Shown piece by piece: positions 2,738-44,899 of a stretch of DNA of 64,000 nt. Source of the DNA: Escherichia coli (GTDB taxonomy: Bacteria; Pseudomonadota; Gammaproteobacteria; Enterobacterales; Enterobacteriaceae); the NCBI RefSeq assembly GCF_041248615.1, contig NZ_CP158426.1. One strand, 5' to 3'. Made by a program: the position numbers and the translations under genes. Positions within the stretch are counted from its first letter, which is position 1. The number at the start of each line of letters is the position of its first letter. The notes under the pieces were generated by a model. That model ran no database searches and was not told the origin of the DNA. It saw only the letters and a list, made by a program, of their open reading frames with translations.

Positions 2738-3227
2738 TCAACTCACTGGGTTAGTTGAATTTACAACCATGCTCAGTATCTCGATAAGCGCAGGGAGATG
2801 ATGCAGTGGTGGGCGGACTGGCTTGATGAAAGTGTGCTGTAATCCTCATATCCAACCTAAGAGATATGCACAATTTTGTGAATAAGATATTGAGAATTAG
2901 CAAAAGTTTTATTTTGCGTATCATCAATTCAGAATACAAAGTCACATGCTAATGTTCTGCATTGGTATCTTTTGCTTATCCATGTCTACATTATCGCCAA
3001 AATAATAGGTTTTGCCTATCAATTATTTGAATTACTTCCATGAAATTATAACGCACTTGTAATTTTTGATTATTTTTACCTCTCAAGTGTTTTGTTTCTT
3101 CTATCTCTTTGTATTTTTAGCGAAAGTATGCCATATTGCATTCTAATATAACGTGGCGTTGTTTCTGTTTAATGATTTAAATAGTTCAACATAATATTTG
3201 CTAACAAATTATATCCAAGCAAATCAT

Positions 3228-4373
3228 ATGATATTATCATTACAATATATTAGAGGAATAGCATCATTACTTGTTGTTTTATTCCACTTCAGATTCTTGC
3301 TAAATGAGCACTACTCTCAGAAAGATTTGGGTGACCTATTATTTGGGAATGGGCTGTCTGGAGTTGATATATTCTTCATATTAAGTGGATTTATCATCGT
3401 ATACTCAACAAGAAAGAAGGAAGTTAATGATACTTTCTCATTCTCAATTAGAAGAATATTTAGAATATACCCATTACTAATCACATGCTGTTGCATGTAT
3501 TACATAATAAACACTCAATTTCTAACCTATGCTACAGTTGAAAACTTTAGAACCTTACTTATTTCCATCATTCCATTAAATATAAACTGGAATGAAGGCG
3601 CTCCATTCTTTGCCTATAATCTTTTGTACCCGGCCTGGACGATAACATATGAAATTGGTTTCTATGTTTTTTTCGGGGTATCAATGTCTATTTCGCATAA
3701 ATACAGAACAATTATCTGTTCTGTTTTTATAATCATGGTGGTCTCATTTACACAATACTATGTAAATGGAAATATATCATTTTCAGGTGATGTTAGTGCA
3801 GGGTTATTTACAGATAACTGGTTATTAGGATATACAAATGTTATTACATCTCCAATGATGTATGAATTCGTTATTGGGATGTTTCTTTCTGAAATATTTA
3901 CAAACATCAACGAAAGCAAAAGTATTAAAAGGATACTTTCAAAGTATTCGCTTCAAATACTATGGATTTCATGTGGTATATCCATAATATTATTCATTAT
4001 CCAGCGACCTTATGGGCATGGATTGAATGGATTTGGGACTATGGCGATGATACTTATTGCATCATCATTAGTATATGAATACTGCAATATAACACCCAAA
4101 ATAAAAATATTTAATTTCCTTGGTGAAATATCATATTCTTTATATCTAATTCACGCCGTGATACTTGCTTTGTTCTTCTATTATAAGGCAGACCTTGCTG
4201 AAATTGGCATAACTGGTGGATTTTCTGTGTTTTTTTCCTTGGTTATTATCTCAATAACTGCATCATATCCAATATATATTCTCATTGAAAAGCCAATGAT
4301 AAATATAGGTAAACGTTTAATTGACAAGAGAAATAAGAGCATTAACAAAAAAGAAACCGAAATAACAGCGTGA
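3228..4373 (+). CDS. integral membrane acyltransferase, family 3 (putative O-antigen/polysaccharide O-acetyltransferase)
   Basis: Very hydrophobic multi-TM protein; N-terminal R/H motif YIRGIASLLVVLFH typical of acyltransferase family 3; ATG at 3228 chosen over the track's TTG at 3198; AT-rich codon usage. Confidence 0.7.
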   Translation: MILSLQYIRGIASLLVVLFHFRFLLNEHYSQKDLGDLLFGNGLSGVDIFFILSGFIIVYSTRKKEVNDTFSFSIRRIFRIYPLLITCCCMYYIINTQFLTYATVENFRTLLISIIPLNINWNEGAPFFAYNLLYPAWTITYEIGFYVFFGVSMSISHKYRTIICSVFIIMVVSFTQYYVNGNISFSGDVSAGLFTDNWLLGYTNVITSPMMYEFVIGMFLSEIFTNINESKSIKRILSKYSLQILWISCGISIILFIIQRPYGHGLNGFGTMAMILIASSLVYEYCNITPKIKIFNFLGEISYSLYLIHAVILALFFYYKADLAEIGITGGFSVFFSLVIISITASYPIYILIEKPMINIGKRLIDKRNKSINKKETEITA

Positions 4374-4410: not shown

Positions 4411-5748
4411 TTAATCTATTTCGTAAGTGACAGTGATTATCACTTCTGCATTATTACCCAAAACATTTTGATATATATTCATATTACCTGATAATGTAGT
4501 TGCTCCAGTAAGAGTTATATAACTACTATTTGCATCAACCCTTGGAAGTAAAGCGGTAACTGCTGTTGTTAAATTATTATAGTAGCCTGTACTTCCAACA
4601 TATGCAGCTTTATTGCTTGATACATATGGTAACCCTCCAATTCTGAAACCATCTCCTGACCCAATTAAAGTTATACCAAGGTGACATGTTGCCGTTATGA
4701 TATTGCCACTCCTGACATAATTTCCTTTCTGCTGATAATATGTGGCATTACCACCTACAGTCGGAATCCAAACTCCAGTTTCTATATCACCACATGACCA
4801 GTCTTCTGCTGTTGTTAGTTTTCCAGTAACAATAAATTTACTTCCACCACCAGAATTATAAGGAACAAAAATTGGATTTATTCTTGCATAAGTGTTACCG
4901 GTCTGCTCATTAAGATCATTTCTATCAATAAGAACTTGACCATTTTCGAAGTTTGAAATCTGGCAGTCTGTTACACTCCAGTCTCTTAACTTCACATCAG
5001 CATCCATGACACCAATAAGCTTACCAGCATTACCAATTTTTTCTTTATGCATATTTACATACACATTTCTTACCGTAACAGACTGAGGGAACAGATAATT
5101 AGCAGGATTAGTTTTATCACTTAAAACAGATATTACCCAAGGTCTGTATTGAGTACTTACTTCACAATAAAATCCATCAATAAGCGTTCCAGATGCCGCT
5201 GGCCCAAGTAGTATTCCACCTGTAGAGTGATGCGCACTACCTCCAATTACTCTCCCCTTAACGCAGTTAATATAGGCAAAACATCCTAAATCTTGATTGT
5301 CATAGGCTGACATAGCACAGTCTCTAACTGTTACTCGAGAATTTCCTCCGTCATAAGCTGAGCCATCAGTTTTCTTACCAACTATTGATATAAAGTTACC
5401 AATAGCAACTCGACTATAAAAAGTTTTTTTATAACACCCCTCAATTAAAATATCCCAGTTTTCAAACTGAGCATATATATCATAAATGCTGGCATTCCCA
5501 TAATCTATGAAATCACAATATCTTATTTTCGGCGTATAAACGGCACTTTTTATCTTTATACCACCTAATGCTCTCTCCCCACCTGTGAATCTAATGCCAG
5601 TAACGGTGTAATCGCCTTGATAGAAATTATCTGCGGTAGGATTATTTTCGTCAGAATCATCACCCAATATAATAGCAAATTCACTCCCTGAATAATTAAT
5701 TGTCGCCCCCTTATTTGAATATATAGTTACAGGTCTTATAAACTCCAA
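4411..5748 (-). CDS. beta-helix-like protein of unknown function (possible tailspike/depolymerase-like domain); lacks an ATG start, possibly frameshifted or truncated
   Basis: 445-codon ORF whose first codon is TTG; Gly/Asn/Thr/Val-rich repetitive sequence; in-frame upstream TGA; upstream out-of-frame ATG (5831) separated by an A7/T7 tract. Confidence 0.45.
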   Translation of the reverse strand: MEFIRPVTIYSNKGATINYSGSEFAIILGDDSDENNPTADNFYQGDYTVTGIRFTGGERALGGIKIKSAVYTPKIRYCDFIDYGNASIYDIYAQFENWDILIEGCYKKTFYSRVAIGNFISIVGKKTDGSAYDGGNSRVTVRDCAMSAYDNQDLGCFAYINCVKGRVIGGSAHHSTGGILLGPAASGTLIDGFYCEVSTQYRPWVISVLSDKTNPANYLFPQSVTVRNVYVNMHKEKIGNAGKLIGVMDADVKLRDWSVTDCQISNFENGQVLIDRNDLNEQTGNTYARINPIFVPYNSGGGSKFIVTGKLTTAEDWSCGDIETGVWIPTVGGNATYYQQKGNYVRSGNIITATCHLGITLIGSGDGFRIGGLPYVSSNKAAYVGSTGYYNNLTTAVTALLPRVDANSSYITLTGATTLSGNMNIYQNVLGNNAEVIITVTYEID

Positions 5749-29841: not shown

Positions 29842-29917
29842 TGGTGCTGGTTAACGGACTTGAACCGCTACCCATTCGCTTACAAGGCGACTGCTCTACC
29901 ATTGGAGCTAAACCAGC
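29842..29917 (-). tRNA. tRNA-like gene, anticodon UGU (Thr) by manual folding
   Basis: 76-nt cloverleaf: acceptor GCTGGTT/AACCAGC, D arm GCTC-CAATGGTA-GAGC, anticodon loop CTTGTAA (U33, A37), T arm AGCGG-TTCAAGT-CCGTT, 3' ACCA; one anticodon-stem mismatch. Confidence 0.55.
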
Positions 29918-29922
29918 ATGTT

Positions 29923-29997
29923 TGGCGGGACAGCGTGGACTCGAACCACGATAAGAAGGTTAACAGCCTTCCGTAATGACCTTTATACGACTGACCC
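29923..29997 (-). tRNA. tRNA-like gene, anticodon GUU (Asn), possibly degenerate
   Basis: Anticodon arm GAAGG-CTGTTAA-CCTTC and T arm CGTGG-TTCGAGT-CCACG are perfect; acceptor stem has one mismatch and the D stem is short. Confidence 0.45.
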
Positions 29998-30088: not shown

Positions 30089-30577
30089 CTATGCTACATG
30101 TTTAATTTTCTCTACACGTTTCCGATTTTTAAACGCACTATCCAGAACCGGGTAAATCATAAACAACGAGGCATTAAGGATTTCGTCAACTTCCCGTCGA
30201 CAGGTTGCGAGCGATGGTTTTTGAATGCGCCCGCCGCCACGGCATAACATCTTGCGAGGTCTTGCGACGCGATGATAGTAAGATGCAATGGCGTGCTTGG
30301 AAGAGCCATGAGCGTAGTAGCTGAGGAGGATTCCAAAGGCTTTCTTGTCAATGTACATGACGGAATCGACGACCTGAGAAATCAACATTCCATCATCATC
30401 ATTACACATTGGCCTTGTCATAACTCTTCCCGGCTCTACGCTCTCCATGAACTTCGCTATTACGCTGCTCATGCGCTTTTCCAGACGACCTGAATAAACC
30501 CATGCGCCCCACAGTTCAAGCCAGCCATTCAGCCACTCATGCTGTTCTTTGGTGAGGTTTAGTTCTCTTATGCCCAC
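30089..30577 (-). CDS. Q: late gene antiterminator Q (non-lambda type)
   Basis: 162 aa, GTG start at 30577; Cys-containing C-terminal region; occupies the Q position between nin genes and the lysis cassette. Confidence 0.65.
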
Positions 30578-31124
30578 GCGCCTTCTCCCTGTACCTGAAT
30601 CAATGTGAGATTTCCGCAGAACACTGCCCCAGTATCGATATACATCTGGTTGGCAAATTTGAGTGGTTTCACTGCTGGCGTATGACCAAAGATAAACGTG
30701 TCCGCGCCTTTAATTTCTTTAACGATCCCGTCTTGTGAGTTGCTGATTCGTTCGCGGTTCCAGATTACCTGCTGATGATCAACTGGCTTTCCAAATTCGT
30801 ATTCGTCACAAGGATAATCGGCGTGGCAGATGACATATTTTTTACCTTTGCTCACCAGTTCGATGATTAACGGAAGTTCTTCTGCTTTATGGGCAAGAGC
30901 TTTAGCCAGAATTTCTTTGTCGTAATCGAGATTAAAGAACCAGCCACCGCCATTAAGCAGCCAGTGATTAACGTTTCCACGCTCTGATAAGCCATCAATC
31001 ATCATTTGTTGTCGAATCCAATCGTATCCAGTTTGTTCATAAGGTTCGTGTAGCATCCGTGCAGATCGCCAACCACCCAAATATTTCGGTATTTGCTGCC
31101 ATCAATTCTTTCGTAGATATTCAT
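30568..31124 (-). pseudogene. ninI: ninI (lambda Ser/Thr phosphatase) disrupted by an internal deletion and frameshift
   Basis: N-terminal 40 codons ([40 protein letters not shown]) end at TGA 31002..31004; the C-terminal 160 aa ([15 protein letters not shown]...) lie in another frame; the GDxVDRG and GNHE motif region is absent. Confidence 0.6.
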
Positions 31125-31732
31125 GCAGCCTCACTTCTGCTGTTTCGCAGTTTTTTAAGTTTCTGTTGATACTCCGCCTTGATGGCCCTGCACTCTTCGA
31201 CAGTCCAGCGATGGCGGTTATGGTTTGATTCGATTTCGTCTACTGCTTCCTGCCCGATGCGGTTAATCAGTTCGACGCGATACGGAACGAGATTTCCGCT
31301 TTTGTGCTGGTTGCACACCACGCATTGCTTGTGAATATTGCGTTCATCAAATCGGAGTTGAGGCGCCGCAGCAGTTGTCCGGTAATGCCCGGCATCCCAC
31401 TGAGCAGACGTGAGCGTTCCGCACGAGATACATGGTAAGTCGCGGTCTCTTTCTCTGATGAAGGCGTTTACGGCTTGTTGGGCTTGTTTAATCCAGTAAC
31501 TGCGGGGCTTTAAGGCGAGTTTTCGAATCTTAAGTTTATCTTTCTGTTTCTGCTCCTCTCGTCGTCGTTTCTTCTCTGCTGCCTTTTCCGCTTTTTCGCG
31601 TTCTTTGCTTCGTCGTTCGAGTGCTATCTTGGTTCCACACTCTGGAGAGCACCACCACTGATTGGCGAATGCAGGGTGAAACCATTCCCGACATTCATCG
31701 TTTTTACATCGTCTTCGCGCTGGTTTAGCCAT
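31121..31732 (-). CDS. ninG: NinG (Rap) recombination-promoting nuclease
   Basis: 203 aa [33 protein letters not shown]..., matches my recollection of lambda NinG. Confidence 0.85.
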
Positions 31733-33116: not shown

Positions 33117-33389
33117 TTAACTCCATATACCGCCAATACCCGTTTCATCGCGGCACTCCTTAAAAATTAGGTTCGTGCTCATCTTTCCTTCCCGTTCTTC
33201 CTTGGTAGCAAACCGGTAATACACCGTTCGCCAGACCTTACCTTCGATAACCAGAAGACCTGCCCGTGCCATTTTAGCCGCGGCCTGATTTATGCTGGTT
33301 ACTGTTGCGCCTGTTAGCGCGGCAACGTCCGGCGCACAGAAGCTATTATGCGTCCCCAGGTAATGAATAATTGCCTCTTTGCCCGTCAT
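33117..33389 (-). CDS. ren: Ren exclusion-protection protein
   Basis: 90-aa ORF immediately downstream of P; sequence recalled as lambda Ren-like; true start may be slightly upstream. Confidence 0.75.
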   Translation of the reverse strand: MTGKEAIIHYLGTHNSFCAPDVAALTGATVTSINQAAAKMARAGLLVIEGKVWRTVYYRFATKEEREGKMSTNLIFKECRDETGIGGIWS

Positions 33390-34087
33390 ACACTTGCTCC
33401 TTTCAGTCCGAACTTAGCTTTGAGTTCTGCGATCTTCGCCAGAGCCTGTGCACGATTTAGAGGTCTACCGCCCATAACAGGAAGTTGTTTTACTGGTTCA
33501 GGTATCGTCTCACCACGGTTAATTCGCGCTGTCATACAGGTCAGTTCATCGGCAGCCTTGCGCCGTAATTCCGCGTCAGTCAGCGCATTGGCCCGCATGT
33601 TCTGGTACAAGTTGGTAACCAACCAGTAATGCGCGTTCGATTTCCACGGATAAGACTCTGCATCCGGATACAGGCCACGCTTCCGGCAATACTCGTAAAC
33701 CATATCAACCAGCTCGCTGACGTTTGGCAGCCCGGCGTTAACGGATGCTTCTTCCCGGCACCAGGCGACAAACTGCCCGGGTGATGGCAGGAATGGTCGA
33801 TTCTGCCGACGGGCTACGCGCATTCCTGCGTTAACCTGTTCCATTGTGGTGATCCCGTTTTCCCGGAAAGCCAGAACCCACTGGCGGCGGATTTCGTTCA
33901 GTTCATTCTGGTCACGGTTAGCCAGGCTCGCCGGGAAAGTTGCCAGTAACTGGCTGAACACACCGTTGATGATCTGCGCTACCTGCTGTACCTGCGGCTT
34001 TTCGTCGTACTGTTCCGGCATGTTGTTGGCGATCCGACGCATCTGCTCACGGTCAAAGTTAACCATCTGTGCGGCGATGTTTTTCAT
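33386..34087 (-). CDS. P: replication protein P (DnaB helicase loader)
   Basis: 233 aa MKNIAAQMVNFDREQMRRIANNMPEQYDEKPQVQQ..., lambda P-like. Confidence 0.9.
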   Translation of the reverse strand: MKNIAAQMVNFDREQMRRIANNMPEQYDEKPQVQQVAQIINGVFSQLLATFPASLANRDQNELNEIRRQWVLAFRENGITTMEQVNAGMRVARRQNRPFLPSPGQFVAWCREEASVNAGLPNVSELVDMVYEYCRKRGLYPDAESYPWKSNAHYWLVTNLYQNMRANALTDAELRRKAADELTCMTARINRGETIPEPVKQLPVMGGRPLNRAQALAKIAELKAKFGLKGASV

Positions 34088-34983
34088 AAATCCACCCCGT
34101 AAATCCAGTCAGTGTTTGTCAGGTCGAGTTTTGGTTTGCTGGCTATCATGCCTGCCTGTTGCTTGTTACGGTTGATTTCGAGCTGGGTCCACTTGTCGCG
34201 GAGTTTGGCCGGACTCAGCACGTTACCGGACCAGAAGTTGTCCTGGCATGCCCAGCGGAACAGTACACACATATCGCGGTGGTTACGTCCGTCACGTTCA
34301 CGCATCAGGCGGATATCGTTAGCCCACCCTGCAAAATTCGGTTTTCTGGCTGATGGCGCGATGGTCTTCACCATGTCAAACATCCACTCTGCGGCGGTCA
34401 GGTCTTCTGCTGTCCCCCACTTGCTGCCGCTCTGAATTGCAGCATCCGGTTTCACCACAGGAAGATCGTTTTCTGGCTGGTCAGAGGATTCGCCAGAATT
34501 CTCGGACGAATAATCTTTTCTTTTTTCTTTTGTAATAGTGTCTTTTGTGTCCCTCTGTTTTGAGGGATAGCAATCCCCCAATTTGAGGGATGTTTTATCC
34601 CTCGTTTTAGGGGATTTTCCCTCGTTTTGAGGGATACACCATTCTGAGATGTTTTTATTTGGTCCAAACATGCCGCCTTGCTGCTTGATAATATTCATTC
34701 TGACGAGTTCTAACTTGGCTTCATTGCACCGTTTGACAGGTAACTTTGTAATCTCGCTAAGTTGAGAATCGGTGATTCTGTCCATTGGTTTATTCCACCC
34801 ATAGGTTTTACGCAGAATGGCAAGCAGCACTTTAAACTGTCGCTTGGTCAGATCTGCGCCTGAATAAGCCTCAAGCAGCATATTTGATAGTCTGGCGTAA
34901 CCATCATCGAGATCTGCCACATTACGCTCCTGTCCGGCAAAGTTACCTCTGCCGAAGTTGAGTATTTTTGCTGTATTTGTCAT
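34084..34983 (-). CDS. O: replication initiator O
   Basis: 299 aa from ATG at 34983, MTNTAKILNFGRGNFAGQERNVADLDDGYARLS...; contains the iteron array. Confidence 0.9.
   Translation of the reverse strand: MTNTAKILNFGRGNFAGQERNVADLDDGYARLSNMLLEAYSGADLTKRQFKVLLAILRKTYGWNKPMDRITDSQLSEITKLPVKRCNEAKLELVRMNIIKQQGGMFGPNKNISEWCIPQNEGKSPKTRDKTSLKLGDCYPSKQRDTKDTITKEKRKDYSSENSGESSDQPENDLPVVKPDAAIQSGSKWGTAEDLTAAEWMFDMVKTIAPSARKPNFAGWANDIRLMRERDGRNHRDMCVLFRWACQDNFWSGNVLSPAKLRDKWTQLEINRNKQQAGMIASKPKLDLTNTDWIYGVDL
34550..34635. repeat. ori-lambda iterons (four ~19-bp direct repeats) inside O, next to an AT-rich tract
   Basis: Four repeats of the form TCCCTC-N-GAGGGAT; adjacent AT-rich tract 34500..34549. 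Confidence 0.75.
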
Positions 34984-35017
34984 AATGACTCCTGTGGATT
35001 GATCCAGTCTTTCTACA

Positions 35018-35296
35018 TCAGGCCTCAAAACTGTTGCAGCAGTCTTGAGGCTTTTCTTTTGTCAGCACCATGGCTACTTTCTTTGCTAGCTTTGCTAATT
35101 CCTCGTCTTCAACACCCCACTCCAGCACAGCCAGAAGCATGGCCATCTTTGGGATAAAGCTGTCTTTCCATCGCGAAATTTGCGATTCATTAATCCCTAA
35201 TGCATCAGCAACCTTTCGCTGACCACGTACAGCAATTCGATTCAGGATGTTGCTTGTGATTGCATTCGCTTTCTTGCGAGTACTTGTAAGTTGCAT
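35018..35296 (-). CDS. cII: CII transcriptional activator
   Basis: 92 aa from ATG at 35296 with RBS AAGGAAA; HTH ...ALGINESQISRWKDSFIPKMAMLLAVLEWGV resembles lambda CII. Confidence 0.75.
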   Translation of the reverse strand: MQLTSTRKKANAITSNILNRIAVRGQRKVADALGINESQISRWKDSFIPKMAMLLAVLEWGVEDEELAKLAKKVAMVLTKEKPQDCCNSFEA

Positions 35297-35352
35297 ATGT
35301 AAGTATTTCCTTAACAAATAAGAAGTTATACGCACCAACTGATGCGCGTTGT

Positions 35353-35398
35353 ATTCCCGCATTTCGGCGGGAATAAGGACCATGACTGTTAAAGAGCA
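35353..35398 (-). promoter_or_regulatory. nutR (boxA plus boxB hairpin)
   Basis: Reverse strand TGCTCTTTAACA (boxA-like) then hairpin TTCCCGCCGAAATGCGGGAA; same boxB sequence as nutL. Confidence 0.6.
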
Positions 35399-35404
35399 AT
35401 TTGC

Positions 35405-35590
35405 TTATGCCGCTTTGCGATAAGCACTTTCTTGATACTTCAGGGCGCCAGCTGTAACGACTTCCAGTCGATAGGCGTCTTTCTCTGGGATGACTTCCTT
35501 CCACTGAGAAACTGCTGCATCGCTAATGCCTAACGCTTTAGCTACCGCACGCTGGGTTCCGAAGTGGTCGATAACATCTTTCTTGTACAT
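35405..35590 (-). CDS. cro: Cro repressor
   Basis: 61 aa with HTH ...QRAVAKALGISDAAVSQW...; divergent from cI across the operator region. Confidence 0.7.
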   Translation of the reverse strand: MYKKDVIDHFGTQRAVAKALGISDAAVSQWKEVIPEKDAYRLEVVTAGALKYQESAYRKAA

Positions 35591-35670
35591 AGACTCGCTC
35601 CGAAATTAAAGAACACTTAAATTATCTATCAAAGGAATCTTAAGTCAAGTTTATTTAAGATGTCTTAACT
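35591..35670. promoter_or_regulatory. OR operator region with pR and pRM
   Basis: TTAA-centred inverted repeats (ATCTTAAGT...ATTTAAGAT); reverse-strand -35 TTGACT (35643..35648) and -10 ATAATT (35620..35625) with 17-bp spacing, upstream of cro. Confidence 0.6.
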
Positions 35671-36321
35671 ATGAATACACAACTGATGGGTGAGCGTATT
35701 CGCGCTCGCAGAAAAGAACTTAAGATTAGGCAGGCTGCCCTTGGCAAGATGGTTGGCGTGTCTAATGTTGCTATTTCCCAATGGGAGCGTTCTGAAACTG
35801 AGCCCAATGGCGAAAACCTATTGGCTTTAGCCAAGGCTTTACAGTGCTCCCCTGATTACTTGTTGAAAGGAGAAGATAGTCTTTCAAACATTGCCTATCA
35901 CAGCAGGCATGATCCAAGAGGTTCGTATCCTCTAATTAGTTGGGTAAGCGCAGGATGTTGGATGGAAGCTGTAGAGCCATATCATAAGCGTGCAATAGAT
36001 AACTGGTACGATACAACCGTAGATTGTTCAGAAGATTCGTTTTGGCTGGACGTAAAGGGTGATTCGATGACGGCTCCAGCCGGTCTTAGCATCCCGGAAG
36101 GGATGATAATACTAGTCGATCCTGAAGTAGAACCTCGTAATGGGAAGCTGGTAGTGGCAAAGCTCGAAGGAGAAAACGAGGCAACTTTCAAGAAGTTAGT
36201 TATTGATGCTGGCAGAAGGTTTCTAAAACCACTTAACCCACAATATCCGATGATTGAGATCAACGGGAACTGCAAAATCATCGGTGTAGTTGTCGATGCA
36301 AAAATAGCAAACCTTCCATAA
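35671..36321 (+). CDS. cI: CI repressor (HTH plus S24 LexA-like autopeptidase domain)
   Basis: 216 aa; N-terminal HTH ...QAALGKMVGVSNVAISQWER...; C-terminal domain ...GDSMTAPAGLSIPEGMIILVD...KIIGVVV resembles the 434/21-type repressor. Confidence 0.85.
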   Translation: MNTQLMGERIRARRKELKIRQAALGKMVGVSNVAISQWERSETEPNGENLLALAKALQCSPDYLLKGEDSLSNIAYHSRHDPRGSYPLISWVSAGCWMEAVEPYHKRAIDNWYDTTVDCSEDSFWLDVKGDSMTAPAGLSIPEGMIILVDPEVEPRNGKLVVAKLEGENEATFKKLVIDAGRRFLKPLNPQYPMIEINGNCKIIGVVVDAKIANLP

Positions 36322-36633: not shown

Positions 36634-36933
36634 ATGGCAGTAGTCATTACATATCTGGCTGACGATAACGCCAGAAATCGCCGCAGAGCACGCAGACAGG
36701 CTCAACGTGAACAGGCAATGCAAGAACAGCGACTGGCGCGAAAGATTGCGCTAAAGCTCTCTGGTTGCGTCAGAGCAGATAAAGCAGCATCACTCGGAAG
36801 CCTTCGCTGCAAGAAGGCAGAAGAGGTCGAGAGTAAACGGAATCGTATTTACTACCGCAAGCCACGCAGTGAAATGGGTGTGACTTGTGTTGGTCGCCAG
36901 AAAATGAAATTAGGCAGTAAGCCACTTATTTGA
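36634..36933 (+). CDS. N: antiterminator N (phage 21-like)
   Basis: 99 aa with N-terminal arginine-rich motif NARNRRRARRQAQRE and C-terminus ...YYRKPRSEMGVTCVGRQKMKLGSKPLI resembling N proteins. Confidence 0.75.
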   Translation: MAVVITYLADDNARNRRRARRQAQREQAMQEQRLARKIALKLSGCVRADKAASLGSLRCKKAEEVESKRNRIYYRKPRSEMGVTCVGRQKMKLGSKPLI

Positions 36934-36944
36934 GAGGAATTAAT

Positions 36945-37568
36945 ATGTCATCAATCCGCTTAACTACGAGAATGAAAGAGGAAATCGCTCGTAACGCTTT
37001 AATTAAGTCTGGGGTTTTCACTGAACTTGAAGAAGTAACAAAGTTAAAGAACCAGCTTGCACTTGACGCCAGAGTTATTGCGTTTGGCGGTAAAAAGAAA
37101 ACTGAGGAAGTGGATCAGTTATCATCCAAGTTGGTAGCTATAAGTGAAGAACTTGAAAAGATGGGATGTTCATTTTACTCATACGATGTTCGTTCTACTT
37201 CAATTTATCTGACTGTATCTGGCAGAAGGGTTGGATGGCTTTCATATGGGAAAGACGGCAACGGCGAAGATATATTGCTCCCTGCTCCGAACAAAGATAA
37301 ATGCATGTTTAGCGCAGAACACGAAATAACAAAAAGGTTTGATGAAATCTGCGCATTGCAACAAAAACTTGAAGCCAAGAAAAAGGATATCGAATCAAAT
37401 GTATGGGCTGCTTTGAACTCAGTCACAACAGTTAAGCGACTTATTGAAGTTTGGCCTGAAAGCAAAGAGTTGCTACCAAAAGAAGCAGATAAAGCAAGTA
37501 CAGCACTTCCTGCTTTACGGGTAGAAGATTTGAATAAGATGATTGGACTTCCTTCCGAGGCCGCATAG
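36945..37568 (+). CDS. hypothetical protein (207 aa) immediately downstream of N
   Basis: ATG at 36945 with RBS GAGAGGA; no motif I can assign; followed by a terminator. Confidence 0.5.
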   Translation: MSSIRLTTRMKEEIARNALIKSGVFTELEEVTKLKNQLALDARVIAFGGKKKTEEVDQLSSKLVAISEELEKMGCSFYSYDVRSTSIYLTVSGRRVGWLSYGKDGNGEDILLPAPNKDKCMFSAEHEITKRFDEICALQQKLEAKKKDIESNVWAALNSVTTVKRLIEVWPESKELLPKEADKASTALPALRVEDLNKMIGLPSEAA

Positions 37569-39025: not shown

Positions 39026-39049
39026 TAAAACCAACATAAGGAACCACCC

Positions 39050-39196
39050 ATGATTTACGCAATCGCGGGAGGCGCTCGCATGGGTGCCTTCCAACTAAAT
39101 GAATCTTTACTTGAACGAATCACCCGTAAATTACGTGACGGATGGAAACGCCTTATCGACATACTTAATCAGCCAGGAGTCCCCAAAAATGGATAA
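39050..39196 (+). CDS. small hypothetical protein (48 aa)
   Basis: ATG at 39050 with RBS AAGGAACC; below the ORF-track length cutoff. Confidence 0.3.
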   Translation: MIYAIAGGARMGAFQLNESLLERITRKLRDGWKRLIDILNQPGVPKNG

Positions 39197-44884: not shown

Positions 44885-44899
44885 TTAGTATAAAAAAGC
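44885..44899. other. attL core (lambda 15-bp common core, reverse orientation)
   Basis: Second exact copy of TTAGTATAAAAAAGC followed by host ybhC-proximal sequence. Confidence 0.88.

Follow-up and report, generated by a model that had tools for sequence, protein, structure and literature searches.

The element analyzed here is, with high confidence, ori-lambda, the theta-replication origin of a lambda-type replication module, residing in a mosaic lambdoid prophage at att-lambda of an Escherichia coli chromosome. On the evidence of its sequence, the origin appears to possess every defining property of ori-lambda that can be tested at that level: four 18-bp hyphenated-dyad iterons of the ATCCCTC-N5-GAGGGA type some 20-24 bp apart; a high-AT tract of ~38-40 bp directly downstream of iteron 4 in the O sense; a location within gene O, between the N- and C-terminal domains of the product; and a cognate initiator, O, with a helicase loader, P, encoded alongside. 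The lambda origin is among the best-studied replication origins, and the feature is one already known, thoroughly characterized, and carried almost unchanged by the prophage. The value of its recognition is confined to annotation: the replication module is fixed as being of the lambda type, with O, P, and a four-iteron ori, and the mosaic make-up of the prophage becomes apparent.

The four iterons and their setting in gene O

A repeat search of the window—that is, the whole 64-kb stretch of DNA analyzed—located at 34550-34635, on the + strand, an 18-19-bp unit that is internally dyad-symmetric and occurs four times as direct repeats, the spacings being 23, 24, and 20 bp; on that strand the four read, in order, (T)CCCTCTGTTTTGAGGGAT, TCCCCCAATTTGAGGGAT, TCCCTCGTTTTAGGGGAT, and TCCCTCGTTTTGAGGGAT. 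The four ~19-bp direct repeats that the original prediction had placed in this interval are thus present, at the positions listed in Table 1. When the half-site pattern TCCCYC-N5-6-RRGGGA was sought on both strands of the window, 7 strand-hits were obtained at 4 sites, which sites were the iterons and nothing else; in 100 dinucleotide-preserving shuffles of the window the expected number was 0.04, the observed count being reached in none of the 100, and a looser form of the half-site pattern was expected 0.15 times by chance. The observation of four repeats is real and lies far above the chance level. A simple terminator scan had called iteron 2 (34598-34613) terminator-like, which call we rejected as an artefact of the dyad symmetry together with the T-run that follows it.

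Table 1. Coordinates in the window of the origin, the replication genes, and the neighboring transcription signals
Feature	Position	Strand	Remarks
Ori iteron 1 (ITN1)	34618..34635	-	ATCCCTCAAAACGAGGGA in O sense; corresponds to lambda 39034-39051, identical
Ori iteron 2 (ITN2)	34598..34615	-	ATCCCCTAAAACGAGGGA; corresponds to lambda 39054-39071, identical
Ori iteron 3 (ITN3)	34574..34591	-	ATCCCTCAAATTGGGGGA; corresponds to lambda 39078-39095, identical
Ori iteron 4 (ITN4)	34551..34568	-	ATCCCTCAAAACAGAGGG; 1 substitution relative to lambda 39101-39118
High-AT tract, DNA-unwinding element of ori-lambda	~34509..34550	-	corresponds to lambda 39119-39160, identical; GC 27-33%
Short palindrome around EcoRI site, just right of AT tract	34490..34509	-	TCGTCCGAGAATTCTGGCGA
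Gene O, replication initiator	34084..34983	-	299 aa; 295/299 identical to lambda O
Gene P, DnaB helicase loader	33386..34087	-	233 aa; 227/233 (97%) identical to lambda P
pR-like promoter upstream of cro	35621..35648	-	TTGACT-16-GATAAT, 10/12 sigma-70 match; position where pR is expected
cro	35405-35590	-	from the ORF list
oop-like antisense unit	34958..35062	+	pO-like promoter 34958-34986; predicted start near 34994; terminator ends near 35062

The original prediction had staked its lambda-type reading on the alignment of these repeats with the lambda ori iterons, and in that alignment the four coincide base for base with the features annotated in NC_001416 as ori iteron 1-4 (O), as well as with the features of phage 21 (OL657228) annotated as "ori lambda 4 iterons for gpO binding" and with the gpO protein_bind features of that record. 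Over the iterons, 71 of 72 bases are those of lambda. When the window, reverse-complemented, was aligned over 261 bp to lambda NC_001416 and phage 21 OL657228, it differed from lambda at 5 positions; and if the origin is delimited as lambda 39034-39160 (PMC3349717), its equivalent is window 34635-34509, in which 126 of 127 bases are identical. This identity, together with the identities of O and P given in Table 1, upholds the lambda-type origin architecture and replication module that had been proposed.

In the O sense, the iterons 1-4 precede the AT tract, which order is that of lambda. The 40-bp windows at 34500-34559 have a GC fraction of 0.275-0.325, the minimum within 34000-35100; so that the prediction of an AT-rich tract adjoining the repeats was right in substance, though its limits of 34500-34549 require adjustment, the start as mapped from lambda being at ~34509. 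The palindrome at the EcoRI site bears one difference from lambda (A to C), which difference is common to phage 21.

The repeats do lie inside the O coding sequence, as was stated at the outset, with the correction that O is on the minus strand. In the O protein they correspond to codons ~117-144 of 299, the inter-domain region. Residues 1-143 of O are identical to those of lambda, a stretch that includes the Pfam Phage_rep_O domain (residues 22-115, 5.7e-36), and the whole gene differs from that of lambda by 18 nt and 4 aa. We rejected the TTG at 35028 as the start of O (314 aa, from the mechanical ORF list) in favor of the ATG at 34983, which start gives the 299-aa lambda length and is the one annotated in the near-twin genome described below. 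The P reading frame—its product matching Phage_lambda_P at 7.7e-62 in Pfam—has the same 4-nt overlap with the O stop codon that is present in lambda, and both the O and the P frames are intact. Beyond P, at 33117-33389 (-), a homolog of ren, which is not a replication gene, is frameshifted, with 90 aa and a novel C-terminal tail in place of 96 aa; in the near-twin genome that locus is annotated as a pseudogene.

Since the repeats fall within the coding sequence for O residues ~117-144, between the domains, they might be viewed as a mere by-product of a repetitive linker in the protein, devoid of any role in cis. The peptide encoded by the repeats, however, is not repetitive, the conserved unit being instead the 18-bp dyad-symmetric DNA motif; the spacings of 23, 24, and 20 bp are not multiples of three, so that the repeats are read in different frames; and in lambda the identical sequences have been footprinted experimentally as binding sites for O (PMC7466680). 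To a by-product of this kind we accord a practically negligible probability. With the repeats taken as ori-lambda iterons, we infer from the identity of 126 in 127 bases to an experimentally defined origin (PMC7466680, PMC3349717) that O would bind them and that the segment would support autonomous, O/P-dependent replication; the firing of the origin in this prophage would likewise be expected on the strength of its identity with lambda.

A lambda-type module within a mosaic prophage

The 15-bp att core of lambda, GCTTTTTTATACTAA, occurs twice without mismatch, at 2536-2550 and 44885-44899. The left flank contains bioA and ybhB (1969-2445), the right end the integrase gene followed by ybhC, with int on the ybhC (gal) side; the element is thus a ~42.3-kb mosaic lambdoid prophage at att-lambda (bioA-ybhB / prophage / ybhC) in the canonical orientation. 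Over 46 kb, E. coli NRZ14408 (NZ_LT599825.1) shares 99.89% identity with the window, and in its annotation—those 46 kb taking in most, but not the whole, of the prophage—the sole pseudogenes marked are ren and a gene for a Ser/Thr phosphatase. The latter, a frameshifted NinI-like gene, corresponds to about window 30569-31125.

The immunity region (35018-36321) is P22-type, encoding a 216-aa C2-like repressor, a 61-aa Cro, and a 92-aa C1/cII-like protein, the genes for which are ~91% identical to those of the phages IME10 and N7 (there annotated as C2, cro, and C1); the Pfam matches of the immunity genes are Peptidase_S24/HTH_3 and Phage_CII. The homology with lambda and phage 21 begins ~25 nt upstream of the O start codon, and this cII/O boundary is a clear mosaic joint. 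The virion genes are not those of lambda, comprising baseplate and other non-lambda families. Only the replication module and the attachment site are lambda-type, the immunity being P22-type and the virion genes non-lambda.

Several other features of the prophage may be recorded here. A tRNA-Thr(TGT) and a tRNA-Asn(GTT), at 29842-29997 (-), are phage-borne and lie between the gene for the Q antiterminator and that for the holin. Stx phages carry tRNAs and toxin genes between Q and holin; the annotation of the twin genome lists no toxin gene in that interval. A leftward early operon (36634-37568, +) includes a 99-aa arginine-rich ORF in the position of the N gene, possibly an N-like antiterminator though with no Pfam match, after which comes a 212-aa protein of the "nucleotide modification associated domain 5" family (Nmad5; Pfam 1.7e-71). 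Just inside the prophage end, at 3198-4373 (+), a 391-aa membrane acyltransferase of the Acyl_transf_3 family (Pfam 1e-30) is encoded, which protein is probably a lysogenic-conversion moron for O-antigen acetylation; the adjoining 445-aa ORF (4411-5748, -) may specify a tail spike or fiber.

Upstream of cro, the pR-like promoter would drive transcription of cro, the cII-like gene, and O, and hence across the origin; promoter-like matches in the region being no commoner than in shuffles, the assignment of pR rests on position relative to cro. On the opposite strand, the pO-like promoter is identical to the pO region of lambda, and the predicted RNA start precedes the O ATG by ~10 nt, the same distance as in lambda. 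Of the oop-like RNA, only the first ~15 nt match lambda oop, exactly or nearly so; the RNA lies antisense to the 3'-terminal part of the P22-C1/cII-like gene, and its terminator, missed by the simple terminator scan and recovered by folding, is a hairpin with 11 of 12 bp paired, followed by a U-tract (-25.8 kcal/mol, z = -3.4). We regard the unit as a predicted oop-like antisense RNA specific to the cII/immunity type of this prophage. An Rfam scan of the whole window returned the two tRNAs alone; neither the origin nor the oop-like unit matched a curated RNA family.

From the established knowledge of lambda (PMC7466680, PMC3349717, PMC6022878), the following course may be proposed. In the lysogen the origin would be silent, because the P22-type repressor would shut off pR. 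Upon induction of the prophage, with the repressor inactivated, transcription from pR would both express O and P and cross the origin, which passage would constitute transcriptional activation. O dimers would then occupy the four iterons, bending and wrapping the DNA into an O-some, which structure would destabilize the adjacent AT-rich tract and lead to its unwinding; P would bring the host DnaB helicase to the O-some complex, and the release of P by DnaK, DnaJ, and GrpE would allow bidirectional theta replication. The presence of the lambda-type replication module together with otherwise intact-looking genes suggests that the prophage could replicate on induction.

The substitution in iteron 4

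Within the 127-bp ori the sole difference from lambda is at window 34554, in the right-hand half-site of iteron 4, where G39115 of lambda is replaced by A (a T on the + strand). The same substitution makes O residue 144 an Arg (AGG) in place of Gly (GGG), and converts the half-site GGGGGA to the consensus GAGGGA, as in iterons 1 and 2. In a census of natural iterons of this family—whose search pattern contained iteron 4, so that the census is informative for half-site variation in the other iterons only—GAGGGA was the commonest right half-site.

That single substitutions near iteron 4 can matter follows from ti12 (lambda C39122A), a classical cis-acting ori- point mutation (PMC6022878) that lies 7 bp from G39115A. 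We considered the iteron-4 change as an equivalent of ti12 and rejected that equation, the position of ti12 being wild type in the alignment of the window.

The A allele is present in 86 of the 1,117 matching E. coli records (complete genomes). Of the 59 deposited phage genomes that have this ori segment, none matches the window exactly over the 81 bp around the site, and none has the allele; an explicit search of IMG/VR gave zero contigs with it, whereas an IUPAC search yielded at least 120 contigs carrying the G of lambda. The restriction of the allele to chromosomal prophages raises the question of whether the origin, though lambda-type by descent, has been weakened or inactivated by the iteron-4 change with its accompanying O G144R, leaving the prophage defective in replication. 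The inactivation of ori-lambda in cis by ti12, so close by, and the abolition of function by deletion of ITN4 (r98; PMC6022878) would be in keeping with such a loss, as would the frameshifts in ren and the phosphatase gene, which lesions denote some decay of the prophage. Nevertheless, the change creates a half-site that iterons 1 and 2 already possess and that natural iterons most commonly use, the ti12 position itself is unaltered, and the O and P frames are open throughout; while the absence of the allele from the 59 phage records is weak evidence, because those records are mostly laboratory derivatives of lambda.

The distribution of the allele bears further on the question. In AR_0369, APEC O2-211, NS-NP030, and Z0117EC0148, the A allele occurs in O genes that differ from that of the window at 13 nt, beside a different immunity region (a 633-nt repressor gene, a 216-nt cro, a lambda-family cII, and N), with a lambda-like upstream oop region and with nin regions that vary. 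The allele is therefore linked to at least two different, mutually unrelated immunity regions, which association with O genes 13 nt apart argues for its spread by recombination among phages rather than for descent within one decaying clone. We accordingly judge a defective origin to be very improbable.

Found as it is in differing O genes, immunity regions, and nin backgrounds, the A allele is a minority natural variant in several mosaic backgrounds and not the private lesion of one decaying prophage; such a distribution would be consistent with an allele circulating among lambdoid phages, and the allele would appear to be compatible with function. Because G39115A restores the consensus GAGGGA half-site, the iteron-4 change is most likely neutral or mildly favorable for O binding. 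In lambda, footprinting indicates that iterons 2 and 3 are bound best by O and iteron 4 worst (PMC7466680), and a shift toward the consensus in iteron 4 could bring at most a modest change in occupancy. A bolder proposal, which we think unlikely, is that the A allele and O G144R together constitute a natural origin variant that alters the assembly of the O-some. If that proposal were true, a stronger iteron 4 beside the unwinding tract could alter the efficiency of firing or the dependence on transcriptional activation, and might explain why the allele is represented in prophages (86 E. coli records) yet missing from the deposited phage isolates.

Comparison with related origins

Sequences related to this origin were found in 276 phage records and in 4,171 of 5,426 complete E. 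coli genomes, and the 81-bp core in 1,115 of the latter, about a fifth. In the 116 IMG/VR loci whose upstream sequence was complete, the motif occurred four times in 79 loci, six times in 21, three times in 10, five times in 5, and eight times in 1.

With respect to lambda itself (NC_001416 / J02459), the order and spacing of the iterons and their position in O are the same, the AT tract is identical, and the pO/oop promoter lies at an equal distance from the O start; by contrast, the prophage has P22-type cII-like, cro, and repressor genes upstream of O, and the body of its oop-like RNA diverges. The closest O genes overall are those of phage 21 (OL657228, rep_origin 35967-36053), HK140, O276, and SfI, at 97.6-98.6% nt identity; these phages carry the same four iterons as the window, although phage 21 retains the lambda G in iteron 4. 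The Stx-converting phages 933W and P27, with six iterons, share with the window the iteron family, the AT tract, and the position within O, but their type of origin has two further iterons, 1' and 1'', ahead of iteron 1, together with an O that is 13 aa longer (PMC7466680). The window, in contrast, contains 4 motif sites only and an O of 299 aa without the 13-residue extension; for which reason its origin belongs to the lambda-type four-iteron class and not to the Stx-type six-iteron class.
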